Source of the DNA: Okamejei kenojei | Lineage: Eukaryota | Length of the DNA: 64,000 nt | Assembly (NCBI GenBank): GCA_035221665.1 | Contig: CM069160.1 | Location: 30,566,001-30,630,000, forward strand | Reading direction: 5' to 3' | Shown here: positions 8,097-40,038 of the stretch, piece after piece | Layout: each line of letters starts with the position of its first letter | Position numbering within the stretch: position 1 is the stretch's first letter | The notes under the pieces: model-generated | The model's database searches: none | Seen by the model: only the letters and a program-made list of their open reading frames with translations | What the model was told of the DNA's origin: nothing | Program-made: the position numbers and the translations under genes

Positions 8097-9236
8097 GGGT
8101 ACACAAAAAGCTGGAGAAACTCAGCGGGTGCAGCAGCATCTAAGGAGCGAAGGAGATAGGCGACGTTTCGGGTTGAGACCCTTCTTCAGACTGGTCAGGG
8201 ATCAGGGAAACGAGAGATATAGACGGTGATGTGGAGAGATAAGGAACAATGAGTGAAAGATATGCAAAAAAGTATCGGTGATAAAGGGAACAAGCCATTG
8301 TAAAGCTGTTTGTGGTGTGAAATTAAGAAGCTGGTGCGACTGGGTGGGGGAGGGAGATAGAGATAGAGGGAATGCCAGGGCCCGAGGGCTGAGGGAGAGG
8401 TGGGAAGGGGAGGAGACAGTAAGGGTTAACAGAATTGAGAAAATTCAATATTCAAGCCCAAAGGATGCAGACTCCCCAAGCGGAATATGAGGTGCTGTTC
8501 CTCCAGCTTGCGGTGTTGCTCACTCTGGCCGTGGAGGAGGCCCAGGACGAGAGGTCGGGATGTGGAATGGGAGGGGGAGTTGAAGTGCTGAGCCACCGGG
8601 AGGTCGGGTTGGTTATTGCGGACCGAGCGGAGGTGTTCGGCGAAGCGATCGCCAAGCCTCCGCTTGGTCTCACTGATATAGATCATCTGGCATCTGGAGC
8701 AGCGGATGCAATAGATGAGGTTATGGAGGAGGGTGCAGGTGAAACCTCTGTCGGACCTGGAAGGACTGCTTGGGTCCCTGAAAGGAGTGGAGGGGGGAGG
8801 TGAAGGGACAAGTGTTGCATTTCTTGCGGTTGCAAGGGAAAGTGCCCGGGGAAGGGGTAGAGTGGGAGGGGAGGGAAGAATGGACAAGGGAGTTGCGGAG
8901 GGAGCGGTCTTTCCGGAAGGCAGACAGGGGGGGGAGATGGAAAGATTGTGGCGGGTGGAGGGGTCACGTTGGAGGTGGCGAAACTGGCGGAGGACTATAT
9001 GTTGTATTTGCCGGCTGGTGGGGTGAAAGGTGAGGACCAGGGGGACTCTGCCCTGTTTGCGAGTGGGGGAATGGGGAGCGAGGGCAGTGTTGCGGGGTAT
9101 GGAGGAGACCCTGGTGCGAGCCTCATCAATAGTGTGGGAGGGGAATCCCCGTTCTCTGAAGAATGAGGCCATTTGTGATGACCTGGTGTGGAACACCTCA
9201 TCCTGGGAGCAGATGCGGCGTAGACGGAGGAATTGG
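8097..9236 (-). mobile_element. 5'-truncated Penelope-like retroelement (GIY-YIG endonuclease) with 11-bp target-site duplication
   Basis: ORF 8426..9196: NLIYCIRCSRCQMIYISETKRRLGDRFAEH..PVAQHFN. GATGCAGGAAA is duplicated at 8086-8096 and 9237-9247. Confidence 0.92.
8158..8194 (-). ncRNA. Minimal type I hammerhead ribozyme motif in the Penelope 3' repeat
   Basis: Minus strand reads CAGU CUGAAGA A GGGU CUCA ACCC GAAAC GUC GCCU. Confidence 0.75.
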
Positions 9237-12200: not shown

Positions 12201-15200
12201 CAAATCATTAATATATATTGGTAAATAGCTGGGGTACCAGCACTGAGCCTTGCGGTACCCCATTAGTCACTGCCTGCCATTCTGAAAAGGACCCATTTAC
12301 TCCTACACTTTGCTTCCTGTCTGTCCAGCCAGTTCTCTATCCACATCAAATTGAGGCAGTGCAACGTAGGATCACGAGATTGATTCCCTGGGATGGCGGG
12401 ACTGTTCTACGAGGAAAGATTGAAAAGACAAGGCTTGTATGCACTAGAGTTTAAGAAGGATGAGGGGTGATCTTATAGAAACATATGCAATTATAAAAGG
12501 ACTGGACAAGCTAGATGCAGGAAATATGTTCCCAATTAAACCAGCATCTGTAGTTCCTTCCTACTCTTTCCTTTGAATGGACAGCACACAAACTATTTAG
12601 CTTTTCATTGCAGCTCGGTATTCATAACAATAAGACTTGTTAGGACTCTAGGGTGCCAGCTATAGGTGAGGTTGAGTAGGCTGGGTCTCTATTCCATGGA
12701 ACATAGGAGTATGAGGGGAGATCTCACAGAGGTGTACAAAATCATGAGAGGAATAGATCTGCTAGATGCACAGTCTTTTACCCAATCTTTAAGAAAGAAC
12801 TGCCGATAGCTGGAAAAATCGAAGGTAGACAAAAATGCTGGAGAAACTCAGCAGGTGAGGCAGCATCTATGGAGCGAAGGAATAGGTGACGTTTCGGGTC
12901 GAGACCCTTCTTCAGACTCTTCTTCTAAGTGTGTCTTCCTTCGAGTCTCTTACCCAGAGTAGGGGAATCGAGGACCAGAGGGCATAGGTTCAAGGTGAAG
13001 GGGAAACGATAGAATAGGAATCTGAGGGGTAACTTTTTCACACAGAGGGTGGTGGGTGTATGGAACAAGTTGCCGGAGGAGGTAGTTGAGGCTGGGACTA
13101 TCCAATCGTTTAAGAAACAGTTGGACAGGTTTGGAGGGATATGGACCAAGCGCAGGCAGGTGGGACTAATGTTGCTGGGACATTGTTGGCTGGTGTGGGC
13201 AAGTTGGGACGAAGGGCCTGTTGCCACACAGTTATCACTCCGTGACTCAACGAACAATAAGCGAAACTAAAATCGTCCAATTCCTCGTCCAATTTGGAAA
13301 AGGGTTTGTCTTTGCAGGAGTGAGTGGCTGCTGTTCCGATTTTTAACTCGGGCACGGAGGAGCGGGCCCGGGGAGGTGGGGACGACTCAACAGGTGAGTG
13401 AGACCCCTGGACATCTCTCAGCCGCTGGGACAAAGCGATCGCTCCACCTTCTTTGCAACTTAGCGGAGACTCGCTAGAAGGTGGAAGGGGACACCCCGCT
13501 GTCCCCCCCCCCCCCCCCCCCCCCCCCGGGATGAGGCTGGGACCGAGACCAGGGTTGGTTTCCCGGGGCCGGAGTGGCCAGTTTGCCCGCTCGGGAGAGC
13601 GTGGGGGCCGGTGCGGGTCAGGGAAGGTCTAGGCGGCGGCCGGGAGAGTTGGTCCGTTCACTGGGATCGTTATACAGCGTGTAAACAGGCCCTTCGGCCC
13701 AACGTGCCCCATCTACACTAGTCCCACCTGCCTGCGCTTGGTCCACATCTCTCCAAACATGTCCTATCCATCTACCTGTATTTCAACGTTGGGATAGTCC
13801 CAGCCTCAACTACCTCCTCCAGCAGCTTGTTCCACACACCCAACACCATCTGTGTGGAAAAGACATGTTCGTTCACAGCGCTCTCGGCCGGGAATGTAGC
13901 TGCGAGTCCGACCATGCAAAGAAAATATTAAATCCCCTTCTCATTCTCACAGACCGGCACAAACTGTTGTAGTAACTCTCAGCGGGACAGGCAGGCAGCA
14001 TCTTTGGAGAGAAGGAGTGGGGGTCGTTTCTAGTCGAGACACTTCTTCAGACTCTGCATTTTCAAGATCCATCAGTCTGAAGAAATGCCTCGACCCGAAA
14101 TGTCACCCATTCCTTCTCTCCAGGGACGCTGCCTGGAGAGAAGGAATTCAGCCCCTGGGGCCAACACCGCCATTCAATATGACTTTGGCTGCTGGCTGCA
14201 TGGCTGCTTTTTCCCCATATTTAGAAGGTTGGGAGGGGATCTTATTGAAACATATAAGATTGTTAAGGGTCTGAAGAAGGGTCTGGACCCGAAACGTCAC
14301 CTGTTCCTTCGCTCCATAGATGCTGCCTCACCCGCTGAGTTTCTCCAGCATTTTTATCTTCTTTCAATTTTTCCAGCATCTGCAGCTCTTAAACTTTAAG
14401 GGTTTGGACACGCTAGAGGCAGGACACATGTTCCCGATTGTTGGGCGAGTCCCGAATCATGGGCCACAGTTTAAGAATAAGGGGTAAGACATTTAGAACG
14501 GAGATGAGGAAACACTTTTTCGCACAGAGAGTTGTGAGTCAGTGGAATTATTTGCCTCAGAGGGCGGTGGAGGCAGGTTCTCTGGATACTTTCAAGAGAG
14601 AGCTAGATCGGGCTCTTAAAGATAGAAGAATAGAAACATAGAAAATACGTGCAGGAGTAAGCCATTCGGCCCTTCGAGACTGCACCACCATTCAATATGA
14701 TCATGGCTGATCGTTCAACTCCGTATCCTGTACCTGTCTTTGCTCCATACCCCCGATCCCTTTAGCCACAAGGGCCACATCGAACTCCCTCTTCAATATA
14801 GCCAATGAACTGGCCTCAACTACCTTCTCTGTCAGAGAATTCCAGAGACTCACCACTCTCTGTGTGAAATGTTTTTCTCTCATCTCGGTCCTAAAAAGAC
14901 TTCCCCTTATCCTTAAACTGTGAGCCCTTGTTCTGGAGTTCCTCAACATCGGGAACAATCTTCCTGCATCTAGCCTGTCCAACCCCTTAAGAATTTTGTA
15001 AGTTTCTATAAGATCCCCCCTCAATCTTCTAAAGTCTAGTGGCTACAAGCCGAGTCTATCCAGTCTTTCCTCATATGAAAGTCCTGACATCCCAGGAATC
15101 AGTCTGGTGAACCTTCTCTGTACCCCCTCAATGGCAAGAATGTATTTCCTCAGATTTGGAGACCAAAACTGTACGCAATACTCCACGTGTGGTCTCACCA

Positions 15201-16640
15201 AAACCCTGTACAACTGCAGTAGAAACTCCCTGCTCCTATACTTAAAACCTTTTGCTATGAATGCCAACATACCATTCGCTTTCTTCACGGCCTGCTGCAC
15301 CTGCATGCCTACTTTCAATGACCACTACCATAACACCCAGGTCTCGTTACATCTCCCCTTTTCCTAATTGGCCACCATTCAGATAACAGCCTACCTTCCT
15401 AGTTTTGCCACCGAAGTGGATAACCTCACATTTATCCACATTATACTGCATCTGCCATGCATTTGCCCACTCGCCCAGCCTATCCAAGTCACCTTGCAGC
15501 CTCCTAGCATCCTCCTCACACCTAAACACTGCCCCCAGCATCATGTCACCTGCAAACCTGGAGATGTTGCATTCAATTCCCTCGTCCAAATCATTAATAT
15601 ATATTGTAAATAGCTGGGGTACCAGCACTGAGCCTTGCGGTACCCCATTAGTCACTGCCTGCCATTCTGAAAAGGACCCATTTACTCCTACACTTTGCTT
15701 CCTGTCTGCCAGCCAGTTCTCTATCCACATCAAATTGAGGCAGTGCAACGTAGGATCACGAGATTGATCCCTGGGATGGCGGGACTGTTCTACGAGGAAA
15801 GATTGAAAAGACAAGGCTTGTATGCACTAGAGTTTAGAAGGATGAGGGGTGATCTTATAGAAACATATGCAATTATAAAAGGACTGGACAAGCTAGATGC
15901 AGGAAATATGTTCCCAATTAAACCAGCATCTGTAGTTCCTTCCTACTCTTTCCTTTGAATGGACAGCACACAAACTATTTAGCTTTTCATTGCAGCTCGG
16001 TATTCATAACAATAAGACTTGTTAGGACTCTAGGGTGCCAGCTATAGGGTGAGGTTGAGTAGGCTGGGTCTCTATTCCATGGAACATAGGAGTATGAGGG
16101 GAGATCTCACAGAGGTGTACAAAATCATGAGAGGAATAGATCTGCTAGATGCACAGTCTTTTACCCAATCTTTAAGAAAGAACTGCCGATGCTGGAAAAA
16201 TCGAAGGTAGACAAAAATGCTGGAGAAACTCAGCAGGTGAGGCAGCATCTATGGAGCGAAGGAATAGGTGACGTTTCGGGTCGAGACCCTTCTTCAGACT
16301 CTTCTTCTAAGTGTGTCTTCCTTCGAGTCTCTTACCCAGAGTAGGGGAATCGAGGACCAGAGGGCATAGGTTCAAGGTGAAGGGGAAACGATAGAATAGG
16401 AATCTGAGGGGTAACTTTTTCACACAGAGGGTGGTGGGTGTATGGAACAAGTTGCCGGAGGAGGTAGTTGAGGCTGGGACTATCCAATCGTTTAAGAAAC
16501 AGTTGGACAGGTTTGGAGGGATATGGACCAAGCGCAGGCAGGTGGGACTAATGTTGCTGGGACATTGTTGGCTGGTGTGGGCAAGTTGGGACGAAGGGCC
16601 TGTTGCCACACAGTTATCACTCCGTGACTCAACGAACAAT

Positions 16641-16775
16641 AAGCGAAACTAAAATCGTCCAATTCCTCGTCCAATTTGGAAAAGGGTTTGTCTTTGCAGG
16701 AGTGAGTGGCTGCTGTTCCGATTTTTAACTCGGGCACGGAGGAGCGGGCCCGGGGAGGTGGGGACGACTCAACAG
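16641..16775 (+). promoter_or_regulatory. Putative promoter and non-coding 5'UTR exon of gene 1 (copy 4; the other copies' donors are at 6094, 10004 and 13393)
   Basis: Non-repeat island with IRF-element-like AAGCGAAACT, two CCAAT motifs and a GC-rich, ATG-free segment ending in the strong donor CAG|gtgagt. Confidence 0.5.
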
Positions 16776-18709
16776 GTGAGTGAGACCCCTGGACATCTCT
16801 CAGCCGCTGGGACAAAGCGATCGCTCACCTTCTTTGCAACTTAGCGGAGACTCGCTAGAAGGTGGAAGGGGGACACCCCGCTGTCCCCCCCCCCCCCCCC
16901 CCCCCCCGGGATGAGGCTGGGACCGAGACCAGGGTTGGTTTCCCGGGGCCGGAGTGGCCAGTTTGCCGCTCGGGAGAGCGTGGGGGCCGTGCGGGTCAGG
17001 GAAGGTCTAGGCGGCGGCCGGGAGAGTTGGTCCGTTCACTGGGATCGTTATACAGCGTGTAAACAGGCCCTTCGGCCCAACGTGCCCCATCTACACTAGT
17101 CCCACCTGCCTGCGCTTGGTCCACATCTCTCCAAACATGTCCTATCCATCTACCTGTATTTCAACGTTGGGATAGTCCCAGCCTCAACTACCTCCTCCGG
17201 CAGCTTGTTCCACACACCCAACACTGTGTGGAAAAGACATGTTCGTTCACAGCGCTCTCGGCCGGGAATGTAGCTGCGAGTCCGACCATGCAAAGAAAAT
17301 ATTAAATCCCCTTCTCATTCTCACAGACCGGCACAAACTGTTGTAGTAACTCTCAGCGGGACAGGCAGGCAGCATCTTTGGAGAGAAAGAGTGGGGGTCG
17401 TTTCTAGTCGAGACACTTCTTCAGACTCTGCATTTTCAAGATCCATCAGTCTGAAGAAATGCCTCGACCCGAAATGTCACCCATTCCTTCTCTCCAGGGA
17501 CGCTGCCTGTCCCGCTGTGTTACTCCAGCATTTTGTGTCTATCTTCGGTGTAAACCAGCATCTGCAGTTCCTTCCTACAATTAACTCAGTGTTTGGAGAG
17601 AGTTGAGAGATACAGTGTGGAAACAGGCCCTTCGGCCCATCGAGTCCACGGAGACCACTGATCACCATTCACACTAGTATTATGGTATCCCACTTACTTA
17701 TCCTCCACCTATACATAGAAACATAGAAAATAGGAGTAGGCCATTCGGCCCTTCGAGCCAGCACCAATATGATCATGGCTGATTATCCAAAATCGGTAGC
17801 CCATTCCTGCCTTCTCCCCATATCCCTTGATTCCTTTAGGCGCTGAGAGCTAAATCTAATTTTCTCTAAAAAACATCCAGTGAATTGGACTCCACTGGCC
17901 AGATTCACTGATCGATCCAATGACTTTATCCAGAGGCTGGCAGGAGAACAGGACTCGGTTGTGCTGGACAATCTCCGTGCATTTAAGAGAAATCTAGAAA
18001 AAGCCCAAGGGCGAGAGAGCAGGAGGAAGGTTTTGACTGGGGTGGGATGAATTAAATCAGGCGAGCAGAGACTTGTAGCAGACACACTGTCTGTGTGGTT
18101 GGAGCCTGAGGCGTATCTCTACGAATATTGTTTTGTCAAAACAAGAAACTGCAGATGCTGTTTAACACACAAAAAAAACACAGAGTGTTGGAGTAAAATA
18201 GAAACATAGAAAATAGGAGTAGGCCATTCAGCCCCTGGGGCCAGCACCGCCATTCAATATGATTTTGGCTGCTGGCTGCATGGCTGCTTTTTCCCCATAT
18301 TTAGAAGGTTGGGAGGGGATCTTATTGAAACATATAAGATTGTTAAGGGTCTGAAGAAGGGTCTCGACCCGAAACGTCACCTGTTCCTTCGCTCCATAGA
18401 TGCTGCCTCACCCGCTGAGTTTCTCCAGCATTTTTGTCTTCTTTCAATTTTTCCAGCATCTGCAGCTCTTAAACTTTAAGGGTTTGGACACGCTAGAGGC
18501 AGGAAACATGTTCCCGATTGTTGGGGGAGTCCCGAACCAGGGGCCACAGTTTAAGAATAAGGGGTAAGACATTTAGAACGGAGATGAGGAAACACTTTTT
18601 CGCACAGAGAGTTGTGAGTCAGTGGAATTCTTTGCCTCAGAGGGCGGTGGAGGCACGTTCTCTGGATACTTTCAAGAGAGATCTAGATCGGGCTCTTAAA
18701 GATAGAAGA

Positions 18710-20885
18710 ATAGAAACATAGAAAATACGTGCAGGAGTAAGCCATTCGGCCCTTCGAGCCTGCACCGCCATTCAATATGATCATGGCTGATCATTCAACT
18801 ACGTATCCTGTACCTGTCTTTTCTCCATACCCCCTGATCCCTTTAGCCACAAGGGCCACATCTAACTCTCTCTTAAATATAGCCAATGAACTGGCCTCAA
18901 CTACCTTCTATGTCAGAGAATTCCAGAGACTCACCACTCTCTGTGTGAAAAATGTTTTTCTCATCTCGGTCCTAAAAGACTTCCCCCTTATCCTTAAACT
19001 GTGACCCCTTGTTCTGGAGTTCCCCAACATCGGGAACAATCTTCCTGCATCGAGCCTGTCCAACCCCTTAAGAATTTTGTAAGTTTCTATAAGATCCCCC
19101 CTCAATCTTCTAAAGTCTAGTGGCTACAAACCGAGTCTATCCAGTCTTTCCTCATATGAAAGTCCTGCCATCCCAGGAATCAGTCTGGTGAACCTTCTCT
19201 GTACCCCTTCAATGGCAAGAATGTCTTTCCTCAGATTAGGAGACCAAAACTGTACGCAATACTCCGGGTGTGGTCTCACAAAAACCCTGTACAACTGCAG
19301 TAGAACCTCCCTGCTCTTATACTTAAAACCTTTTGCTATGAATGCCAACATACCATTTGCTTTCTTCACGGACTGCTGCACCTGCATGCCTACTTTCAAT
19401 GACTGGTGTACCATAACACCCAGGTCTCGTTACATCTCCCCTTTTCCTAATTGGCCACCATTCAGATAACAGTCTACTTTCCTGTTTTTGCCACCGAAGT
19501 GGATAACCTCACATTTATCCACATTATACTGCATCTGCCATGCATTTGCCCACTCGCCCAGCCTATCCAAGTCACCTTGCAGCCTCCTAGCATCCTCCTC
19601 ACAGCTAACGCTGCCCCCCAGCATCATGTCACCTGCAAACTTGGAGATGTTGCATTCAATTCCCTCGTCCAAATCATTAATATATATTGTAAATAGCTGG
19701 GGTACCAGCACTGAGCCTTGCGGTACCCCATTAGTCACTGCCTGCCATTCTGAAAAGGACCCGTTTACTCCTATACTTTGCTTCCTGTCTGCCAGCCAGT
19801 TCTCTATCCACATCAATACTGAACCCCCAATACCGTGTGCTTTAAGTTTGCATACTAATCTCTTATGTGGGACCTTGTCAAAAGCCTTCTGAAATAGATA
19901 TAACACATCCACTGGTTCTCCCTTATCCACTCTACTAGTTACATCCTCGAAAAATTCTATAAGATTCGTCAGACATGATTTACCTTTCGTAAATCCATGC
20001 TGACTTTGTCCAATGATTTCACCACTTTCCAAATGTGCTGCTATTTCATCGTTAATAACTGACTCTAGCATTTCCCCCACTACCGATGTTAGACTAACTT
20101 GTCTGTAATTCCCCATTTTCTCTCTCCCTCCTTTTTTTAAAAGTGGGGTTACATTAGCTACCCTCCAATCCTCAGCAACTACTCCAGAATCTAAAGAGTT
20201 TTGAAAATGATCACTGATGCCATCCACTATATCTGTGGCTACTTCCTTGAGTACTCTGGGATGCAGACTATCTGGCCCTGGGGATTTATCTGCCTTTAAT
20301 CCATTCAATTTACCCAACACCACTTCCCGGCTAACCTGGATTTCACTCAGTTCCTCCATCTCATTTGACCCCGGTCCCCTGCTATTTCCGGCAGATTATT
20401 TATGTCTTCCTTAGTGAAGACAGAACCAAAGTAGTTATTCAATTGGTCTGCAATGTCCTTGTTTCCCATGATCAACTCACCTGTTTCTGACTGCAAGGGA
20501 CCTACATTTGTTTCAACTAATCTTTTTCTCTTCACATATCTATAAAAACTTTTGCAGTCAGTTTTTATGTTCCCTGCCAGTTTTCTTTCATAATCTATTT
20601 TCCCTTTCCTAATTAAGCCCATTGTCCTCCTCTGCTGGACTCTGAATGTCTCCCAGTCCTCTGGTAGGTTGCTTTTTCTGGCTAATTTGTATGCTTCATC
20701 TTTTGTTTTGATACTATCCCTCATTTCCCTTGTTATCCAGAATGCACTACCTTCCCTGATTTGTTCTTTTGCCAAACTGGGATGAACAATTGTTGTAGTT
20801 CATCCATGCCTTCCATTGCACATCCACTGTCAACCCTGTAAGAATCAATTGCCAGTCTATCTTGGCCAATTCACGTCTCATACCT
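18710..20885 (-). mobile_element. CR1 LINE, about 2.2 kb 3' portion of ORF2 plus 3'UTR
   Basis: KSPGPD..HPRVLKE, QHGFTKGKSCLTNL, KAFDKVPH, GVPQGSVL, FAGD, RGDLIETYKI. Shorter duplicates at about 6810-7923, 11240-12349 and 14630-15733. Confidence 0.95.
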
Positions 20886-22909: not shown

Positions 22910-23251
22910 GGGAAGCCAATTATATTTCGCCTGAAAGTCCCTTTTACGGCGTAGTGGGTGGCGATGTCATCTTGGGGTGCTGGTTGAGACCAGTTACAGC
23001 CCTGAAGGAATTGGAGGTGCGATGGTTTAAGTCAACAAAGCTGGTACATTTGTACTCTGGCGGTCAGGATCGACTGGATGTGCAGAACAAGGCTTATCGA
23101 GGGAGGACGGATCTCTTTCCCAAAGAGTTTCACCTCGGAAATGCCTCACTTAAACTGAAGTGGATTAAAGCCTCAGACAATGGCATGTACACCTGTTCCA
23201 CCAGGACCAACACCACCTATCTGCAGATGGGGCTGTATCTGGCCGTTGAAG
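22910..23251 (+). CDS. Butyrophilin/B7-like gene 1, IgV exon 1
   Basis: 342-nt phase 1-1 exon (ccag| ... G|gtgagt): GGDVILGC..LEVRWF..VHLYSGGQD..YRGRTDLF..GNASLKL..SDNGMYTC, a typical BTN/B7 V-set pattern. Confidence 0.93.
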
Positions 23252-23344
23252 GTGAGTCCCACCTGTGGGAAACCATTTTGGGCCTCATACCTGAGGAAAG
23301 GTGTGCTGGTGTTGAACAGGGTCCGGGGGGGTTAACGAGAATGA

Positions 23345-23865
23345 TCTCCTAATTTGAGGAAGGACAGTGCAGCGTAGGTTCACGAGATTGATCCCTGGGA
23401 TGGCGGGACTGTCATATGAGGACAGATTGAAAAGACCAGGCTTGCATTCACTGGAGTTTAGAAGGGTGAGGGGGGATCTTATGGAAACTGAAAAAAATAT
23501 AAAAGGACTGGACAAACTAGGTGCGGGAAAAAATTTCCCAATGTTGAGCGAGTCCAGAACCAGGGGCCACAGTCTGAGAATAAAGGGGAGGTCATTTAAG
23601 ACTGAGGTGAGAAAAAACTTTTTCACCCAGAGAGTTGTGAATTTATGGAATTCCCTGCCACAGAGGGCAGCGGAGGCCAAATCACTGGATGGATTTAAGA
23701 GAGAGTTAGATAGAACTCTAGGGGCTAGTGGAATCAAGGGATATGGGGAGGAGGCAGGCACGGGTTATTGGTAGGGGACGATCAGCCATGATCACAATGA
23801 ATGGCGGTGCTGGCTCGAAGGGCCGAATGGTCTCCTCCTGCACCTATTTTCTATGTTTCTATGTT
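23345..23865 (+). mobile_element. CR1 LINE 3' fragment
   Basis: ORF 23367..23774 followed by a tttctatg tail. Confidence 0.9.
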
Positions 23866-23901
23866 TCAATGATTGGGTTAATGTACGATGAGCGTTTGAC
23901 G

Positions 23902-24345
23902 TAGGGTTGCCAACTTTCTCACTCCCAAATAAGGGACGAAAGTTCAAAATACGGGACAAATTCCCGACAGCAATTTGTTGACCGACTCGGCCGTGGCTGG
24001 GTGAATGATGAGTTGGCCCGGGTGTTGGACTGCACACAAAGCCCAGCCGGCGGGCCAGCTGATAGGTTTTGGCCCAGGCCGCAAGCAAAGTCCGGTACCC
24101 CATCCAACTCATGAACTGATGAGAAGGAGGGGCGGTGGGGATGTCGGCTATAAGCGAAGGTTGGACAGTTGGCCGTGCCGGACCGCCACGGGCGAGGCGC
24201 TGCTGCTGCTGCTGCTGCACTCCATGGGCTGCACTACGTCGTGAGAGGTGAGGCGGGACCGGACGCGGCGCTCCAACCCGACAGTCCCTTCGACCCGAGT
24301 AGTAGCAGTCAAATACGGGACAAGGGCAGTCCCTTACGGGAGTCC
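23902..24345. mobile_element. MITE with TAGGGTTGCCAAC terminus (hAT-Blackjack-like); relatives at about 35277-35843, 60595-61421, 62264-62760
   Basis: Shared termini and subterminal GGGAC/GTCCC motifs across four copies. Confidence 0.7.
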
Positions 24346-24624
24346 AGGGGGGATTTACGAGAATGATCCCCGGAATAATTGTGTTAACGTACGATGAGCG
24401 TTTGATGGCACTGGGCTTCCACTTGCTGGAGTTTCAGAAGGATGAGGGGGTACCTCATTGAAACTTGCCGAACTTACGCTAGCGGGCGAGTCTAGAGCCA
24501 GATGCACAGCGTGAGAATGAAAGGACGTACCTTCAGAAAGTAGAAGAGAAGGAATTTATTTTGTCAGAGGGTGGTGAATCTGTGGAATTGATTGCTACAG
24601 ATGGCTGTGGAGGTCAAGAGAGAG

Positions 24625-25360
24625 TCAATAGACAATAGACAATAGATGCACTGAGTAGGCCATTCGGCCCTTTGAGCCAGCACCACCATTGTGATCATGG
24701 CTGATCATCCACAATCAGTACCCCGTTCTTGCCTTCTTCCATATCCCTTAACTCTGCTATCTATAAAAATCTATCTAGCTCTCTCTTGAAAGCATCCAGA
24801 GAACCAGCCTCCACCCCCCTCTGAGGTAGAGAATTCCACAGACTCAAAACTCTTTGTGTGAAAAAGTGTTTCCTCATCTTTATTCTAAATGGCTTAGACC
24901 TTCTTAAACTGTGTGGCCCCTGGTTCTGGACTCCCCCAACATCGGAAACATGTCTCCTACCTCTAGCATGTCCAAACCCTGAATAATCTTATATGTTTCA
25001 ATAAGATCCCCTCTCATCCTTCTAAACGCCAGAGTATACAAGCCCAGCACATTCTCTCAGCACATGACAGCCTGGCCATCCCAGGAATTAACCATGTAAA
25101 CCTACGCTGCACTCCATCAATAGCAATACTGTCCTACCTCAAATTAGGGGACCAAAACTGCACACAATACTTCAGGTGTGGTCTCATTAGGGCCCAGTAC
25201 AACGGCAGAAGGACCTCTTTGCTCTGCTACTCAACTCCTATTGTTAAGAAGGCCAACATGCCATTCGTTTTCTTCACTGCCTGCTGTACCTGAATGCTTA
25301 CTTTCATTGACTGGTGAACAAGGACCCCCAGATCCTATTGTATTTCCCCTTTTCCCAAGT
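24625..25360 (-). mobile_element. CR1 LINE 3' fragment nested in another CR1 remnant (about 24350-24619, resuming at about 30851-31030)
   Basis: (caataga)n tail on the + strand; the host element is interrupted at ggtcaag and resumes after the DIRS. Confidence 0.8.
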
Positions 25361-25521
25361 TTCAAGAGTCAAGAGTGTTTTTTTTGTCATATTTCACAGA
25401 ACAATTAAATTCTCACTTGCTGCAGCACAACAGAGTATGTGAACAATGTCCACTGTGAACAATAGAATACAAATAACAATATGACAGTTCAGTGTGTGTA
25501 TATATACACATACTCACAAAT

Positions 25522-25717
25522 NNNNNNNNNNNNNNNNNNNNNNNNNNNNNNNNNNNNNNNNNNNNNNNNNNNNNNNNNNNNNNNNNNNNNNNNNNNNNNN
25601 NNNNNNNNNNNNNNNNNNNNNNNNNNNNNNNNNNNNNNNNNNNNNNNNNNNNNNNNNNNNNNNNNNNNNNNNNNNNNNNNNNNNNNNNNNNNNNNNNNNN
25701 NNNNNNNNNNNNNNNNN
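25522..25717. other. Assembly gap (196 N)
   Basis: N run. Confidence 1.
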
Positions 25718-26316
25718 GTCCACTGTGAACAATAGAATAGTAAGATTAAACGAGAACTCACCTGTTCGAAGTTTGATCGTTATTTTACGAGGAGTTACGA
25801 TGAGGGATTACGTGAAGAGCCCGCCTCACGCTGGTAACGGCATACTTCAAAGCAACGGCATGAAAAACACAGAACACCAAAGCCGGAGTAACATAGTAAG
25901 GCTCATAAAAAGACTTAGAACCACCATTTGATCATTTATTTTTACGAGGGTGGGAGTGGAGGGCACGTAATCCCTCATCGTAACTCCTCGTAAAATAACG
26001 ATCAAAACTTCGAACAGGTGAGTTCTCGTTTAATCTTACTATTTTACTTCGGAGTCACGTGAGTGACTACGTGAAGAGTTTTAAAAGCTTTCTGTGTTTT
26101 TTATGTCGTAGAATTAATCCGTACGACAGTCCGGCTAAGTAAACACATACATGAGAAAGCAGACAAATGTTAGATCTTTTCACAATTAAATTTTTTAATG
26201 GTTGAAAGACCATATAATACCCTCCTTATATTTGAGGGAAAAATGATTACAAGTGACAAAAGATATCAGTGACTACACAACTGATTATAGCAATTAATAG
26301 CAAACAAAGCAGGTGA

Positions 26317-27290
26317 TTATAGTGCTCCCAACACCGCATGTCCAAAGCTTGTCATAGTGTGAACAGGTTTGTTGTAGAACTTTGAAAAAGTTTCTTCTTT
26401 ACTCCACCCTGCGATTTTTAAAATATGCTCGAGAGGTACGTCCCGCCCCTTCGCCGCGGACGTAGCTGCCGCCCTGGTGGAGTGAGATTTGAAGACATCA
26501 GTGTCTACTCCCGCTAAAACCAACACCTGTTTCAACCATTTTGAGATAGTTTGAACTGAAGCTTTTGTGTGTGGCTTTTTGTGCGTAAGCAGTAATGTCT
26601 TTTTCGTTTCCTCGAAAAGTGTCCGTAACTTTAATATATTGGTTCAAATGTCTAACCACACACAAAGCAGGCTCAATATGAAAAGCTTGAAAGGTTACCT
26701 TTGTTCCAGATCTCCCTGGTCTACTTTGTTTGATCAGATCGTAAACATAGAATACAACGTTATCTGTAGTCACATGCATACAGTCTAAACGCAACATTTG
26801 TAAAGTTTGCACTCTTTGGGCTGAGACCAGTGACATTAACATGACCAATTTCAATGTTAACCTATCCAATGGCAACCCTTCAATTGGAGTCCATTCTCTA
26901 AGTAGAGCAAGTACAATGCTCACATCCCAAATCTCTGTATATCTAGGTTTTGGCGGATTCATGTGAAAAATTCCTTTCATGAATCGTGATATTAATGGAT
27001 GCGACCCAATTGATTTCTCACCAGTCATAAGTCCTAAATAGGACGACAAGGCACTGCGTGCAGTGTTAATGGCACTGTAACTTAAATGTTGCCCAAAGTG
27101 CAAATTGGCAAGGAATTCCAAAAACATGAGTAACATTCACAGAATCATCAGAAATATTTGACTGTGTGCAAAATTCTTCCCATTTCTTAATATGTGTCAT
27201 ATATTGTTTCTGTGTGCTATCTCGCCATGATGCGCCAATAACTGTCAAAGTTTGGTCCGACAATCCCAGTTCCTGTAGTGGTCTGGTCAA
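26317..27290 (-). CDS. DIRS tyrosine recombinase (frameshifted into three ORF pieces)
   Basis: SAQRVQTL, HSTRAAATS and AGWSKEETFSKFY motifs, plus an N-terminal integrase SAM-like region (STQKQYMTHIKKWEEFC). Confidence 0.9.
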
Positions 27291-29200
27291 AACCTGCAGA
27301 TTAACAAATTCATATATGCATATAATGGGTAACCTTCATTTGTTACTGGATTAGTCAAGATATCACTACAGTTAGGAATTTGGATATACGGTTCTTTAAT
27401 CATATTCAGCATAACTGGGAACCAAGGTTGAGTTGGCCAATTTGGCACTACCAACAATCCGGAAGCTGAATCTTGCTCTATTTTCTTCAAGCATCTCTGG
27501 ATCAGAGCAAATGGTGGAAAAGCATAAAAGAACATTTTTCCCCAGTGTAATGAAAATGCATCTACTGCAACTGCGTCCGGATCGTGTTCCCAAGACACAT
27601 AATGAGGCAATTGATGATTAAGCCTGGATGCAAACAAATCAATTTCTGGCAACCCAAATCGTCTAACAATATTCTTAAATATTGCTGGCTTAAGCATCCA
27701 TTCCGTATTATCTTTAAAAAATCCTGGACCTTTCATCTGCTACCACATTGTCTTTACCTGGAATATAGCTTGCTGAAATCCATATCTGCCGACCAATACA
27801 CCATTGCCATATCTCATTGACCAGACAATCACATGATACTGATCTAACTCCCCCCATGTGATTAATGTAAACCACAGCGTTTTATTGTCTAATTGTATTA
27901 ACACATGCAGACCTTGTTTTAGCACAACAATATGCTTTAAGCCCATAAAAGGCCCCCAATAATTCCAAATAGTTAATACCATACTCTTGGAGAAACACTT
28001 GTTCTTCAGTTTTCCATCTACCTCCACAACTGGAGGATAAATCTGTGGCCCCCCATCCGAGAGCACTAGCATCGTTTGTAAAACCATTTCAGGCTGTTTA
28101 ATCATGATCTTCTTAGCAGCTTGTGGGACATTTTCAACCCACCATTGCAATTCCAATACTGCTTTCCTTGTTAATTGCATAGGCCTGTCAAAGTGACCTG
28201 CCTTATCTTTAAGAGCCCTTACTTTGTCCCTTTGAAGATTTTGATAATGTAATGGCCCAAATTCCACTGCCGGAAATGCTGCCACCAGTGTACCAATGAC
28301 TTTTGCCACTTCTCGGATGGAGGGATAAGGTTTGTGAATGAGGTAATTACACATTTGCAAAATATCATTTGTCTTCTTTGCTGGCAAAGTAACTAACATA
28401 GTCACTGAGTTAATTACAAACCCCAGAAAATCAATTGATGAACTGGCTGCAGCTGGGATTTAATTGGATGAATTAAGAATCCAAGCTCTTTAAACAAAGC
28501 TTTAGTAACTGAAATTGAGTGCTCAGCTGACTCTTGACTATCGTTAATAATCAGAATATCATCCAGATAAGCCATTACAATGTGTTTCTGTGCTCTTAAT
28601 TGAGCTAAAACTGGTTTCAACAGTTTTTGTAAAGAGTCTAGGAGCCGAACTTAATCCATTTGGTAAAGCTTTGAACTGCCATAATTGCCCCTGCCAATAA
28701 AACTTTAAGTATCTCCGAAAAAGATGATGAATTGCTAAGAATAATAGGCGTCTTTCAAATCAATCTTAGCCATATAAGAACCTGCTGAAATCAAATATTT
28801 TGCAGTATTGAATGTCTCCATCTTAAAATGTTTGTATTCTACAAACTTATTTAGATCTGTAAGGTCTAGAATAATTCTACAACCACCATCTTTCTTATCT
28901 CTGCGAAAATATATTAGAGACAAATTGATGCTTATGTTCACAAGTTTTTTTTCAATTACCCCTTTTTCGGATAATTTGTCAATTTCCACATTAATCTCCA
29001 TTCTTTCTTCTGGAGAAAACACATAAGCATAAGCAGGTTTATTCTGTACAGGAGGATTGACCCTTCTTTAAAAATAATAATAGCTCCTGAAACTGCTTGT
29101 AATATAAATCGATCAGAAGTAATATTAAGCCAGGCATTATAAAATTTTTGCAATCTCCCTCCAACTGGAGATTCATCCACAGTTTCTTTAAGGATAGAAG
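27287..29200 (-). CDS. DIRS pol: reverse transcriptase, RNase H and Dam-like methyltransferase domain (frameshifted)
   Basis: PVGGRLQKFYNAW, GGCRIILDL..LNKFV, KIDLKDAYY, AYLDDILI, IDLFASRLNHQL, FYAFPPF. Confidence 0.9.
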
Positions 29201-29203
29201 TCT

Positions 29204-30423
29204 TTAATACCTCTCCATAGGAGCGTGATGGTCTCCTCTTTCCCGAATGCAGGGAAGCAGTGGCCTGTGCAGCACGATAATACTTTCGTGACAAATTTCT
29301 GCCTCTATAACGAAAATCAAAACCCCTTCGGGCCGAAAACCCTTTTCTTTGTCCAGAGACAAAAGGCTTAATAGTGCTAAAATATTTAGCTTCTTCATCC
29401 AACTGTTTCAGTTGTTTCGGCAGATTTTCTCCAAACAAATACCCAGGAGCTTGAACTCCACTTTCTTGACACAGGCTTGCATATCTAGGGTGAAATATGG
29501 GCCGAATCGCCATTTTCCTCATGCAATTTGATCTCATAAAAACGAATTGCACAATAAGCCCAAAGTATCTTTTTGAATCTTGTCCATTTCCAGATTCTCC
29601 ATTTGCCTGCCAAATGCCGTGATGGCAGCCGAAAATAATTTTAGCACCTTTTGAAATTTCACTTCTTGGGCTCTCATACTTGGAGTCATAGACGCCCATA
29701 CCATCGGATTCACCGTAGGCACTTCCAATGAGGCACAATTGCCTGGTGCTTTATATAATTCTGATAATTCATTCATCACAGTATTATGAAGCTGGTGAGA
29801 TACCATATAATTTATATTGGCAGCTAGGCTTTCTTCCATAGCCTCACCACTTCCTTCGGGTATAGCAAAAAACTTGTGCTATCCCAGGCAGATCAAGCCT
29901 TTTCTTTTTACTTTGTGGCGTGCTTTCAAAAGCCATTTCAACTTCAGCAGGGTCTGCTTTCTGCAGCCCTAATTTCCATCGGGATATTATCCCATGAGAC
30001 TTCTTCCAGCCCAAATCGTGGGTCTGGAGTATCATATTCCCAACTTGGCCCACAGCCATATTCATCATAATCAAACCCCTCAGGGATTTTTTGGGATTCA
30101 TGTGGGTACTGTGACCCTTGTCTCATAATAGTTTGGAGAACTTTCTCCATATGCTCCATTTTTAGCCACATAGTTTTATTGTCTGGAGGTCTTTCAAAAT
30201 CAGAATCATCAGAAACCACGGGCCTCACAGTTTTCTTTTTGCATTTCTTAGGAGCATTTTCCTCCGTGGTTATAATTTCCGGAGAATCTGGAAATTCTAT
30301 ATCGGGTAAATTAGTGGCCAGCGGTATCGGAACCGGGTCCACTCTAGCTTCGCGTCCCGTATATTTACTTTCACCCCGGGAGGCTCTCTTCACCCGCGAA
30401 ACCTTCTTTCCCGATTTCTCCAT
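29204..30423 (-). CDS. DIRS gag-like ORF1 (frameshifted)
   Basis: Position upstream of pol; PGNC..LEVPTVNP..W and YLFGENL segments typical of DIRS gag. Confidence 0.7.
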
Positions 30424-30702
30424 TTTTGTAAAAATTTATCTGTGCTCAATCAGCACGTTAACGTCTAAATTTTTACTTTTAGTTTCGATGCTGGAGCCAT
30501 CCAGCGTAACTTCAAAACCGCCCCGATGTAACTTCACTTACCTGCGGGCCGTTCCGACCGCTGCGAGGAGCTGCTCCTTACTGCAGCTCCTCCTTTCGCC
30601 GTCAGCGTCGACGTCATGCCGTTACCAGCGTGAGGCGGGCTCTTCACGTAGTCACTCACGTGACTCCGAAGTAAAATACAAATAACAATATGACAGTTCA
30701 GT

Positions 30703-30744
30703 GTGTGTATATATACACATACTCACAAATACACATATATATAG

Positions 30745-30781
<37 letters not shown>

Positions 30782-30810
30782 ACACACTCACGCACACATA
30801 TGTACACGCA
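30703..30810. repeat. (TA)n/(CA)n microsatellite
   Basis: Seen directly. Confidence 0.9.
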
Positions 30811-31046
30811 AATAAAATACAATAGAGCAATAATAACAATAATAGTCGAAGGTCAAGTCATTGGATATTTATAAGGCAGAGATTGCCAGATTCTTGATTA
30901 GTAAGAGTGCCAGGCGTTATGCGGAGAAGGCAGGAGAATGGAGTTGAGAGGGAGCGATAGATCAGCCGTGATTGAATGGCGGAGTAGACTTGATGGGCCA
31001 GGTGGCTTAATTCTGCTCCTATAAGTTATGAATTTATTAATCCTCA

Positions 31047-31630
31047 AGTCAAGCCAAGTCCACTTTATTTGTCACATTCACATACAAGATGTACAGGGAA
31101 AGTGGCAATGCCTGCGGGATTGTGTAAAAACTACAGAACAGAACAGAATGAGTATTGACATTAAAAAAATAAGACGCAATAGTATTTACTCCTTGGTGAG
31201 ATCAGAGTTTACAGTCCTGATGGCCTGTGGGAAGAAACTCCGTCTCATCCTCTCTGTTTTCACAGCGTGACAGCGGAGGTGTTTGCCTGACCGTAGCAGC
31301 TGGAACAGTCCGTTGCTGGGGGGGGGGGGTAGGGGTCCCCCATAATGTTGCTGGCTGTGGATCTGCACCTCCTGGTGTATAGGTCCTGCAGGGGTGTGAG
31401 TGTAGTTCCCATAGTGTGTTCGGCCGAACGCACTACTCTCTGCAGAGCCTTCCTGTCCTGGGCAGAGCAGTTCCCAAACCAGATTGTGATGTTGCCGGAC
31501 AAGATGCTTTCTACAGCCCCAGAGTAGAAGGACTGAAGGATCCTAAGAGAGACTCTGAATTTCCTCAGCTGCCTGAGGTGGTAAAGGCGCTGCCTTGCCT
31601 TACTCACCAGTATGGCAGCGTGTGATGTCC
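31047..31630 (-). mobile_element. Rex1/Babar-type LINE 3' fragment
   Basis: KARQRLYHLRQLRKF..AVESILSGNITIWFGNC..LQRVVRSAE, RMRRSFFPQAIR; caagt-repeat tail. Confidence 0.85.
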
Positions 31631-31646
31631 CTGTCACTCTGAGTAG

Positions 31647-31928
31647 GTTTTGAACTCCAGCCCCGGATCCGCCTGGAAAAAAGCACCGAGCAAGAATTGC
31701 ACGAGGTGTGCACGTCCGATGGATGGTTTCCCCAGACGGGGATATGGTGGCAGGATGGGAGTGGACAGGATGTGATCGTGCGGTCTGAAACTCGGTTCAT
31801 CGAGGACTTCAGCGGGCTGATCACTGTCCACAGTCACATCGATGTCAGGAGCGATTCCGTGAACAGGTATTCCTGTTTCGTGGGAAGTCGCTCATGGTGG
31901 ACAAAAGAGGCCCATCTTCAGATATCAG
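31647..31928 (+). CDS. Butyrophilin/B7-like gene 1, IgC exon 1
   Basis: 282-nt open phase 1-1 exon (gagtag| ... TCA G|gtacgt): GFELQPRIRLE..VCTSDGWFPQTGIWW..GLITVHSHIDV..YSCFV..LQIS, a BTN/CD80-type C domain. Confidence 0.9.
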
Positions 31929-33850: not shown

Positions 33851-34895
33851 ATAATTACCTTAATTTAAATCCTAATCTCAGATACGATACGATAGAACTT
33901 TATTTACCTCAGGAGGGGAATTGATCTGTCAACAGTTCTATAAGCACAAAATATATTAAACATGAAAATAGACAATAGGTGCAGGAGTGGCCATTCGGCC
34001 CTTCGAGCAAACACCGCCATTCAATGTGATCATGGCTGATCATCCCCAATCAGTACCCCGTACCTGCCTTCTCCCCATATCCCCTGACTCTGCTATCTCT
34101 AAGAGCCCTATCTAGCTCTCTCTTGAAAGTATCCAGAGAACCGGCCTCCACCACCTCTGAGGCAGAGAATTCCACAGACTCACAAACTCTCTGTGTGAAA
34201 AAATGTTTCCTCGTCTCCGTTCTAAATGGCTTACCCCTTATTCTGAAACTGGCCCCTGGTTCTGGACTCCCCCAACATCGGGAAATAAAGTGACGAGTGG
34301 AAAGGATTGGGGATGTGCAAAGATTGGTGAGGTGTGGGGGGGAGGGGGGAGGGGGAGGAGAGGGGGGGAGGGGGGGAGGGGTGGGGAGAGAGGAGTCAGT
34401 CTCAGTCTACCCCACGACAGAAGGGGGAGGAGTTGTGCACAGAAGCATAGATAATAGGTGCAGGAGTAATATGATCATGGCTGATCATCTAAAATCAATA
34501 CCCCCTTCCTGCTTTTCCCCCCATATCCCTTGATTCCTTATCCCTTGATGAATCAAGGATTCTTTGAGGAATCAAGGGCTAGGCCCCTATAGGCAGCACC
34601 CATAGTCAGGATCGAACCCGGGTCTCTGGTGCTGTGAGTCAGAAACTCTAAGGCTGGCCACCGTGCCCGCTGCTGAGTCCTCCGCTTAATACGGAGGATA
34701 GGCACAAATGGTGGAGTAACTCAGCGGGACAGGCAGCATCTCTGGAGGATAGGAATGATTGACGTTTCGGGTCGAGAGCCTTCTTCAGGCTCCTTTTCCC
34801 CCAGACCCGTTTGGTCACTACAGTGTTTTGTGTCTATCTTCGGTGTAAGCCAGATCTTTCCTTCACTCTTTGTTTAATATGTTGCCTTTCTCCAG

Positions 34896-35238
34896 AGAAT
34901 CCCGATGTTATTTCGTCAAGAAGTTTTGTCACCAGCGTAGTGGGGTGGTGATATCCTCCTGGAGTGCAGGTTGAGGCCAGTTACAGCCCTGAAGGAATTG
35001 GAGGTGAGATGGTTTACATCAGGGTCGCTGGTACATTTATACACCGGCGGGCAGGATCGACTGGACGCGCAGGACGAGGCTTATCGAGGGAGGACAGAAC
35101 TCTTTCAGGAAGAGTTTCACCGCGGAAATGCCTCACTTAAACTGAAGTGGATTAAATTCTCAGACATTGGCATCTACACCTGCTCCACCAAGACCAAAAC
35201 CTCCCACCTGCAGATGGCACTGTATCTGGATGTTGAAA
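34896..35238 (+). CDS. Butyrophilin/B7-like gene 1, IgV exon 2 (one extra G at 34942-34945)
   Basis: Paralogue of exon 22910-23251. It is 343 nt (342+1); removing one G from the GGGG run restores ENPDVISSRSFVTSVVGGDILLECRLRPVTALKELEVRWF...DIGIYTC. Splice sites intact. Confidence 0.88.
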
Positions 35239-35364
35239 GTAAGTCCCACCTGTGGAAAACCTTTTTGGGCCCCATAGGGTCGCCAACTGTCCCGGTTTAG
35301 TCGGGACATCCCATATATTGGGCTAAATTGGTTTGTCCCGTACGGGACCGCCCTTGTCCTGTAC

Positions 35365-35700: not shown

Positions 35701-36413
35701 CAAACCTCCCCTGCAGTCCAGCACAGGGCCAACTCATCATTCACTCAGCCATGGCCGAGTCGGTCAACGAATTGCCGTCAGGAATTTGTCCCGTATTTTG
35801 ACCTTTTGTCCCTTATTTGGGAGTGAGAAAGTTGTCAACCCTACATCAAACGCTCATTGTATGTTAACCCAATCATTTCCGGAGATCATTCTCATAAACG
35901 TGCTTAATTCTGCTCCTATAAATTATGAATTTGTTAATCCTCAGGAGATTTTGTGTCTCTGTTGCTGTGTTTCTGTGTCGGTATCTTTGTGTCTTTTTGT
36001 CTCTCTGCCTCAGTCTTTAGTTTAGTTTTAGAGACACAGCGCGGAAACAGGCCCTTCGGCCCACCGGGTCCATGCCGACCAGCGATCCCAGCACACTAAC
36101 TCCATCCTACACCCACTAGGGACATTTTTTTAACATTTACCAAGCCACCTAACCTCTTTGGAGTGTGGGAGGAAATGGAAGATCTCAGAGAAAACCCACG
36201 CTAGTCATGGGGAGTACGTACAAACTCCATACAGACAGCACCCATAGTCAGGATCGAACCCGGGTCTCCGCCATTGCATTCGCTGTAAGGCAGCAACTCT
36301 ACCACTGCGCCACCGTGGTCGCCCTGCCTCTGTCTCTGTTTCTCTGCCTCTATGACCCGATGAATCCATGTCTCTACGTGTCTCTGACCTCATCTCCCTG
36401 TGACTCTGAGTAG

Positions 36414-36698
36414 GTTTTGGACTCCAGCCCTTGATCCGCTTGGAAGAACGCACCGAGCAAGGAGTGGTTGTTGTGTGCACGTCCGATGGGTGGTTTCCCG
36501 AGCCGGAGTTATGGTGGCTGGATGGGAGTAGACGGGATGTGACTGCGCGGTCTGACACTTGGTTCACCGAGGACTCCAGCGGGCTGATCACTGTCCACAG
36601 CTATCTCTTTGTCAGGGGCGATGCCGTGAACAGGTATTCCTGTTTCATGCAAAGTCACTTACTGAGGCAAACACGAAAGGCTCACCTTCAGATATCAG
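36414..36698 (+). CDS. Butyrophilin/B7-like gene 1, IgC exon 2
   Basis: 285-nt open phase 1-1 exon: FGLQPLIRLEE..VVCTSDGWFPEPELWW..YSCFMQS..LQIS; paralogue of 31647-31928. Confidence 0.9.
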
Positions 36699-37330
36699 GT
36701 AGGTCAGAGATCTTTCCACCTTCGGTTGACACAGAGTCGCAGCAACAGAGCAACTGCCTCCCGAGTATAACTGGATAGCAGTAACAGTGTCGGCCCGAGT
36801 CAGCTTCGATTTACGTAGGAAATTCATGCTTGACTTATCTTCTGGAATTTTTTGAGGATGTAACTAGGAAAACAGACAAGTGGAGAGCCAGTGTACCTGG
36901 ACTTTGAGAAAGCCTTTGATAAGGTCCCACATAGGAGATTAATGGGCATTTACTGATTACCAAGCCAATTAACCTACAAACCTGTACCTCTTTAGAGTGT
37001 GGGAGGAAACCAAAGATCTCGGAGAAAACCCACGCAGGTCGCGGTGAGAACGTGCAAACTCCGTACAGACAGCATCAGAAAATTGTCTATTGTCTATTCT
37101 CACCGAGAGTTGGGATGGAACCCGGGCCTCCGGCGCTGCATTCGTGTAAGGCAGCAACTCTACCGCTTGGTATCCTGAATATTTTTTGATCTGCATTCTT
37201 TTTTGCGTCTTTGACATACAGAATATTTTGAAGTAATTTGGAGGCACAGCATGGAAACAGGCCCATCGGCCCACTGAATCCATGCCAACCATCAGCAACC
37301 CATTCACACTAATTCTGTTATCACACTTGA

Positions 37331-38405: not shown

Positions 38406-39199
38406 TTCTCAGGGAGAATGTGCAAACTCCACACACACACAGGCAGCACCTGAGGTCAGGAGTGAACCCGGGTCTCTGGTTCTGTGAGGCAGCAACTGCC
38501 ATTTGCAGTATAATTTGTCAATATAATTTTGATAGAATTCAGTATCTGAGCTTACAGCTGAGATTTGATCATATCATTGAAACGTATAAGATTATTAAGT
38601 GTTTGGACACGCTAGAGGCAGGTAACATGTTCCCAATGTTTGGGGAGTTCAGAACTAGGGGCCACAGTTTAAGATGAAGAGGTAAAGGGTCTGTTCCACT
38701 TGCCGATTTTTTTTTGGCGATAGCCGGCGTCATATCAGGGTCTCCAAAAGATTTGAACATTTCAAAATCCAGCGGCGACAAAAAAAATGTTGCTACACTT
38801 GAAAAAACACCGCGCGTCAAAACGCCATCACGCCACATCATCGCCGCGTCACGCCGCTTATTTTTCGGTGAACGTCAGTTAATGATGTCGGCAGTCGCCG
38901 AAAAAATCATCACGCGGGACAGGCCCTTATGCCATTTAGAACGGAGATGAGGAACCGCATTTTCAAACAGAGAGTTGTGACTCTGTGGAGTTCTCTGCCT
39001 CAGAGGGCAATGGACGCCGGTTCTCTGGAAACTTTCAAGAGAGAGCTAGATAGGGCTCTTGAATATAGCGGAGTCAAGGGATATGGGGAGAAGGCAGGAA
39101 CGGGGTACTGATTGTGGATGTCGGCCTTGATCACATTGAATGGCGGTGCTGGCTTGAAGGGCCGAATGGCCTACTCCTCTGCACCTATTATCTATTGAG

Positions 39200-39555
39200 T
39201 CCAAGTACCTTGGAGTGTACCTGGATAGTAAACTGGACTGGTCCAAGAATGGTGAGGCCCTGTACGAGAAGGGACAGAGCCATCTATACTTCCTCAGGAG
39301 GCTCTGCTCCTTCAACGTCTGCAGTAAGATGCTGCAGACACTCTACCATTCAGTGGTGGCCACTCTTCTCTGTCGTGTGTGCTGGGGCAGCAGGGCAAAC
39401 GCCGCAGATGCCAACAGGATTAACAAGCTCATCAGTAAGGCCGGCTCCGTCCTGGGGGCGGAGTTGGATTCACGGGAGGTGGTCTCGGAGGGGAGGATGC
39501 TCCTCAAACTGCGGAGCATCTTAGATAATACAGCTCACCCCCTCCATGACACACT
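39200..39555 (+). mobile_element. Rex1/Babar-type LINE fragment
   Basis: YLGVYLDSKLDWS..KGQSHLYFLRRL..ILDNTAHPLH. Confidence 0.85.
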
Positions 39556-40038
39556 GAAGCAAGGAACTGCAGGTGCTGTTTTTTGTACTAAAGTCAGACA
39601 CAAAGCTCTGGAGTGACTGCGCGGGCCAGGCAGCATCTCTGGAAAAAAAGGGATGGGTGGGCGACATTTCGGGTCGGGACCCTTCTTCGGACTCACCTTT
39701 CGCGTTAACTTGGGACCCGTCTGGAGAAGTATCCCGACCCGAAACCTCACCCATCCCTTGTCTCCAGAGATGCTGCCTGACCCACTGAGTTATGGGCCTG
39801 TCCCACTTAGGCGATTTTTTTTGTGTCAACAGGCGCCTGCCACAAAGTTTTCAACATGTTGAAAATTTCTCGGCGACAGTGCGACAATTTCTGCTGTCGT
39901 AGGTTGTGGGTGAATTCCATTAAAATTAGTCCCTGGCAGTCGCCTAAGTGGGACAGGCCCATTCAAGCACTTGGTGCTGACCGTTGCAATCTAATAGCCC
40001 TGTTCTCTTGCCGACAAAGATCATATGATCATTGCTTG

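Follow-up and report, generated by a model that had tools for sequence, protein, structure and literature searches.

A probably young DIRS1-type retrotransposon and an uninterrupted copy of its target site beside an assembly gap in the skate Okamejei kenojei

Introduction

Retrotransposons of the DIRS1-like superfamily, of the Dictyostelium DIRS-1 type, are described in PMC3266345 as carrying a gag gene, a pol gene with reverse transcriptase (RT), RNase H (RH) and methyltransferase (MT) domains, and a tyrosine recombinase (YR) gene that overlaps the end of pol, with YLDD and HSTR motifs in the encoded proteins. Inverted terminal repeats (ITRs) with conserved and divergent parts, a right extension and, complementary to both ends, an internal complementary region (ICR) complete the structure, and ATT is found at the ends and at the junction. 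In the published model, a 3-bp junction recombines with an identical trinucleotide in the genome, most commonly ATT (PMC3266345; PMC7192593), and the ICR is essential (PMC7192593); TTT has been reported for DIRS elements of Xenopus (PMC9210276). Here we describe an element with these same features, its gag being putative, in a 64,000-nucleotide stretch of Okamejei kenojei DNA (contig CM069160.1 of assembly GCA_035221665.1, positions 30,566,001 to 30,630,000 of the forward strand), hereafter the window, whose own positions are used throughout. The copy differs from the described superfamily by an apparent fourth shared base at its one site, by broken reading frames and by an adjacent empty copy of its target.

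In size, the element is closest to the mollusc elements of PMC3266345. Table 3 of that paper gives LgDIRS1 and AcaDIRS1/2, whose hosts are molluscs and not a skate, conserved ITRs of 31-36 bp, an extension of 48 and ICR halves of 39-45 and 86-88; the window's element has ITRs of ~63 bases, 35 of them strictly conserved, an extension of ~45 and ICR halves of 38 and 80 bases. Teleost, frog and lizard elements listed there differ in having conserved ITRs of 102-148 bp and GTT, TTT or CTT ends. Among the 120 of 239 recombinase matches listed, the best is Leucoraja erinacea LOC129695449 (P0008; 56% identity), which carries RH-MT and YR parts, belongs to a different family and is annotated as uncharacterized, and the matches after it are unnamed and marine-invertebrate proteins. 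A literature search over titles and the beginnings of abstracts, outside Repbase, Dfam and subscription journals, returned no paper on DIRS in skates, and the parts of PMC4350176 available to us hold nothing on DIRS in cartilaginous fish.

Results

The contig that stops at a 196-N assembly gap (25522-25717) closes with 74 bases (25448-25521) that recur beyond the gap in two parts. The first 22 of them are identical to 25718-25739, directly after the gap, and the last 56 to 30675-30730, in both cases without a mismatch. As 22 + 56 - 74 = 4, the flanks of the filled site share an overlap of four bases, AATA, and with this overlap set aside the sequence present only in the element measures 4935 bp (25740-30674); taken between two 3-bp cores, the full-length element lies on the minus strand and spans 4936 bp (25739-30674). 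In the empty copy the core AAT stands at 25466-25468, while at the filled site the left flank (25718-25738) ends in AAT at 25736-25738 and the right flank (30678-30730), identical to 25469-25521, continues into an (AT)n tract at 30735-30779. Exact sequence matching bears out the geometry claimed for this site in an earlier note on the same DNA, whose coordinates are correct to a few bases, together with its claim that there is no duplication beyond the shared core, nothing else being doubled in the flanks. No other copy of the 74-mer was found within the window, and the pre-insertion sequence is read correctly whether the empty copy is an allele or a paralog.

The chance of finding a gap edge within 22 bases of either junction is ~0.8% for the six gap edges in the window, ignoring the known enrichment of gaps at repeats, which suggests that the gap is tied to the insertion; it is because of this assembly break that the empty site is visible. 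The other two N runs, at 2553 and 54281, are 500 N long, and the 196-N gap, which differs from them in size and lacks the motif found at their edges, appears to be of a different kind. This 16-base motif was found with 0-2 errors at three of the four edges of the 500-N gaps (2535-2552, 3053-3068 on the minus strand, and 54263-54280) and in weaker form at 19852-19867; we take it to resemble an untrimmed long-read barcode adapter.

The inserted sequence is virtually certain to be a DIRS1-type retrotransposon, as had been proposed, judging by its RT, RH and MT domains, its YR, its ITRs and right extension and its ICR, all on the minus strand. Its 3' terminus (25736-25843) consists of the right extension (~25736-25781) and an ITR (~25782-25843, with the strictly conserved part at 25809-25843), and its 5' terminus is an ITR (30616-30677) that starts with the core ATT at 30675-30677. 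These are not split direct repeats. The longer part of the ICR (25964-26078) is complementary to the 3' end and the shorter to the 5' end, the two overlapping on the junction core at 26041-26043, and the 3' terminus pairs with the ICR at z = -18. The predicted circle junction, built from 30 bases of each end and AATA (64 bases), has one exact reverse-complement match, at 26010-26073, confirming the proposal that the ICR holds the reverse complement of this junction.

The pol region (27200-29192) was delimited by alignments to relatives, aligns continuously to P0002 when frame breaks are allowed for, contains YLDD and RH motifs and reaches 65% identity to an RT protein. Its MT region gave a Dam-like Pfam match (E 0.0015) and a PCIF1-like match, both below the curated cut-off, and is 41-58% identical to the MT regions of 81 related loci, which comprise the 80 best of 355 confirmed metagenome stretches and one viral locus. 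The YR (26320-27299), which overlaps the end of pol and takes the place of a DDE integrase, was recognised by alignment to relatives and by Pfam Phage_integrase in its C-terminal piece (E 9e-6, just below the curated cut-off), and keeps the conserved R, HSTR, W and Y columns. A gag-like open reading frame (ORF1; 29385-30423) is present in several frame pieces; ORF1 in the complete relatives L001, L005 and L021 resembles it weakly, at 22-46% identity in pieces, no Pfam match was found for it, and its end is undefined.

The exact 20-base pattern of the terminus had no match in metagenome or viral contigs, and an alignment search with the recombinase found no relative in viral contigs. One 30.7-kb record among the viral contigs (L081) has a DIRS-type MT region at 41% identity, and no element ends were found in it. 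Over its last 50 bases the element reaches 86-88% identity to relatives (as at L001:5209-5258) whose proteins are only ~50% identical, and TGCCC, just outside the ICR (25958-25963), is invariant in all seven aligned ICRs, those of L005, L002, L004 and L021 among them; by their conservation, the last 50 bases (25740-25790) and TGCCC are candidate cis signals for priming or recombinase binding. Another contig (L015/L016) holds a perfect inverted duplication of a DIRS element over 4780 bases, probably an artefact of assembly or amplification. Among the public sequencing runs, the terminal bins (25722-26103 and 30497-30687) reach ~6x the median body bin in run X1 and ~180x in runs X5 and X15, and loose contig ends of X5 at 26077 and 30641 run on into a different ITR, as if sister families or non-coding derivatives shared the element's ends across the organisms of X1, X5 and X15.

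ATT, in the sense of the element, is found at both ends, in the ICR and at the empty site, and the core of this family is very probably this trinucleotide. In an alignment of the ICRs of the window and six relatives, AAT is invariant in 7/7 and is followed in turn by A, G, G, A, T, T and A. Exact matches of both ends to the ICR were found in three of the 49 loci of at least 3 kb (of the 81), and all three overlap by ATT. The family of L017, L018, L019 and L021 has the same TATT junction as the window, and none of its three distinct 5' flanks carries the T (g, g and a stand before ATT). At the right end of the element on the plus strand, four of six contig joints leave after AAT (30677) and two keep the A, the public-contig results covering 15 of 107 joints and 12 of 88 insert rows; three of these four come from X15 and one from X1, and two show T or G next. 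In element sense a 5-base direct repeat stands on either side of the core, TTACT-ATT-TTACT, an arrangement by which the T beside the core is assigned to the element. Given a 3-bp AAT core, the overlap is extended on one side or the other at 48% of the 2399 AAT sites in the window, and on this side alone at 24%, and the fourth shared base of AATA is probably a chance match.

The earlier note had instead read AATA as a 4-bp crossover core. That the family uses such a core, TATT in element sense and longer than the described trinucleotide, is distinctly unlikely. It would account for the four-base overlap at the window's site, for the two joints that retain the fourth base and for the sister families with an AATT junction, in which five of seven distinct 5' flanks carry the extra A and one locus, L075, overlaps by a full four bases with one mismatch allowed; it does not fit the four joints that depart after AAT or the TATT-junction relative, and over all families only 5 of 12 distinct 5' flanks match the fourth base, against a chance rate of 24% on this side. 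Three loci (L014, L031 and L059), in which the match does not start at ATT, were left out of this count. Some points nonetheless weigh against a general 3-bp rule: the joints are short contig ends of 22-26 letters, mostly from another organism and probably from sister families, and the AATT-junction flanks and L075 may, in a small sample, reflect a longer target preference in some families. Moreover, a crossover core and a target-site duplication would look alike in an empty/filled pair, and only the ICR argues for crossover; as the ICR holds the junction, the second ATT can be argued to have come with the element. A target consensus beyond the core (three of five bases alike on each side) was also considered, and the few other flanks seen do not support it. 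In six loci from three related families with the palindromic AATT junction (L041, L064, L066, L075, L076 and L078), A stands before ATT in 5/5 distinct flanks, a hint, from a small sample, of a 4-base preference in this sister group; two other A-junction loci, L023 and L040, are without it.

The copy is very probably young. Its paired terminal sequences are identical over 79/79, 38/38 and 35/35 bases, with one homopolymer indel (insertion or deletion) and no substitution in ~150 pairs, and no stop was found in ~570 pol codons or ~325 recombinase codons. Contigs of run X1 cover all 30 bins, and two single contigs of 119 and 116 bases, with one and two differences, have depths of 6390 and 3634 (other records, 18), which suggests many near-identical copies in that run's organism, organism A, which may differ from the window's species; contig depth is no copy number, and summed depth was not used as such. 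The recent insertion proposed in the earlier note thus agrees with a young copy of an abundant family, on the terminal identity, the lack of stops and the X1 contigs. Two variants, at 25759/26020 and 25788/25990, form complementary pairs in the terminus and the ICR and differ from 93-99.7% of the aligned depth in three runs, as expected for paired private variants if the ends are copied on the ICR.

The fragmentation of the frames had gone unmentioned before. As assembled, the coding regions are in many pieces, with 11 one-base breaks, nine in pol between 29010 and 27200 (a tenth, near 29047, appears in a longer alignment) and two in the recombinase, near 27122 and 26602; all three frames are open in the complete relatives L001, L005 and L021. 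For nine of the 11 breaks, an indel of matching sign lies no more than 8 bases away in the X1 family contigs (12 of 37 rows listed), and this pairing suggests that most of the breaks come from errors of the long-read consensus, the copy itself being young. Eight of the 12 listed indel places fall in runs of at least four. Indels also abound in the surrounding assembly, where two tandem units of the window differ by 38 gap openings versus 12 mismatches and the host exons V2 and V3 shift frame. Short indels are given as the commonest long-read consensus error in PMC8081667, which also describes consensus indels of continuous long reads (CLR) as a cause of frameshifts. Weighing on the other side, at the nine places no more than 28-61% of the X1 depth carries the break-site indels, and two breaks have no indel among the rows listed. 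An older, decayed element in which the breaks are real mutations is nevertheless quite improbable. It would explain the 11 breaks, as well as several private substitutions relative to X1 contigs (among 40 of 205 rows listed), but if 5-12 substitutions accompany each indel, which is our assumption, the lack of stops has a probability of 0.07-0.002 and the lack of any substitution in ~300 paired terminal bases one of at most 0.002, and both the indel-rich surroundings and the CLR errors described speak against decay.

As for the empty copy, an allelic origin, with a heterozygous insertion, is moderately probable, and we lean slightly towards the overall reading of a recently inserted full-length DIRS1-type element, in which the sequence up to the gap comes from the empty haplotype and that beyond it from the filled one. 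The placing of two haplotypes next to each other across a gap is an assembly error described before (PMC8081667; PMC9516828), and the site shares with the 'flanking contigs' type of false heterotype duplication the identical sequence on both gap sides at a structural difference; here only 74 bases are doubled. Nothing longer is doubled across the gap, a search for duplicates of at least 300 bases at 93% identity or more between the two gap sides found none, and the order of the host exons, V1-C1-V2-C2, runs through the gap with none repeated or missing. Several observations count against an allele: no contig joint crosses the gap (among the 15 of 107 joints listed, with 25491-25521 and 30700-30791 skipped as repeats); the best public runs share only 0.46 of the flank's words, and their organisms may not be the window's species; the 74/74 identity bounds divergence only below ~4%, which a recent paralog would fit; and the host gene belongs to a multi-copy family, while the target is part of a high-copy repeat's tail, the bin 25340-25530 reaching a summed contig depth of 88,509-334,363 in three runs. 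The main rival is a collapsed paralog, in which the empty copy comes from a recent segmental duplicate in the butyrophilin cluster, or from another copy of the repeat tail, and was mis-joined here, so that the insertion may be fixed. We judge this somewhat unlikely: the high-copy repeat, two skate butyrophilin-like paralogs whose contigs are listed with equal lengths, the 3.4-kb tandem units of 95-98% identity at 5.2-19.8 kb of the window and the short overlaps at contig ends where the graph branches (as described in PMC8081667) all speak for it, whereas the identity of all 74 bases, the unbroken exon order and the lack of a longer duplicate speak against it.

A true local tandem duplication of at least 270 bases, whose second unit carries the element in a fixed state and part of whose real sequence is covered by the N run, would formally fit the letters, the 196 hidden bases being unreadable. 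It is very unlikely, as it requires a very recent duplication, a later insertion and a gap that ends 22 bases short of the junction; no tandem array was found at the site, and gaps are reported between false, not true, duplicates (PMC9516828). The empty copy could also stem from integration running backwards, as a precise excision by the recombinase in part of the animal's cells, since recombination between the two ATT cores would restore the exact empty sequence. Phage tyrosine recombinases catalyse both integration and excision. Excision is nonetheless extremely improbable here, as plain heterozygosity explains the same letters and excision was not found in the literature passages that deal with DIRS elements. 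Barely conceivable, too, is the wider picture of a family active now in cartilaginous fish, with integration reversible as in phage, the site regenerated by ATT-ATT excision and the animal mosaic.

The element lies antisense in an intron (23252-31646) of a plus-strand gene of the B7/BTN family, between IgV exon 1 (22910-23251; Pfam V-set, E 7e-10, with AG/GT ends) and IgC exon 1 (31647-31928; Pfam C2-set_3, butyrophilin Ig-C). A second V-C pair was recognised by Pfam and homology on the same strand at ~34895-35240 and 36410-36700, the IgC exons matching C2-set_3 with E 3e-13 and 3e-18, and a third V exon follows. The host exons match BTN2A1/CD276 structures and skate butyrophilin-like proteins (75% and 55% identical), from which the gene can be called butyrophilin-like with fair confidence, and the BTN intron named in the earlier note can be kept as a butyrophilin-like IgV-IgC intron. 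No B30.2 (PRY/SPRY) domain was found in the window, either by Pfam on 99 plus-strand ORFs of at least 58 codons after 36700 or by tblastn with two B30.2-bearing proteins; its exon may be situated beyond the window or be missing altogether, as it is in BTN-like genes. IgV exons 2 (34895-34941) and 3 (47093-47409) change frame as assembled, which would reflect either errors or pseudogenes. Retroposon 3' pieces matching Pfam ALKBH8_N stand at 31189-31630 and 39158-39613, one of them adjoining the acceptor of an IgC exon. The tandem array of ~3.4-kb units at 5223-19816 (95-98% identity) is rich in CR1-like pieces, and between some units gap openings far outnumber mismatches; it may be partly mis-assembled.

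Discussion

The locus can be accommodated within the published model. RNA would have been reverse transcribed and both ends completed on the ICR, joining the 3' and 5' ends around ATT, as in the literature; in the present copy both ends find their exact complement in the ICR, which shares two copy-private variants with the terminus. The tyrosine recombinase would then have crossed the ATT of the junction with the genomic ATT at 25466-25468, so that each side kept an ATT and no base was gained or lost, and the T beside the core would belong to the element end, having matched the target by chance. The animal would have had the insertion on one chromosome only, the assembly following the empty haplotype as far as the gap and the filled haplotype from there on, and the frame breaks would mostly have arisen as long-read consensus errors. 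For DIRS-1 itself, the cDNA was found to be mostly linear and single-stranded, and the circle junction could not be amplified, inverse polymerase chain reaction (PCR) having failed (PMC7192593).

Taken together, the locus is a real and clean example of a known system, with a probably young member of a DIRS1-type family that obeys the ATT rule; it agrees with the existing DIRS model and adds nothing beyond it. It also carries two cautions, that at any one site an overlap beyond three bases should turn up in about half of cases, and that frame breaks in the repeats of long-read assemblies can mask young elements. According to PMC7192593, no experimental study has addressed how specific the DIRS recombinase is. 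If a vertebrate family is young and abundant and offers empty/filled pairs, reads and PCR alone would be enough to test both the target rule and the junction intermediate.

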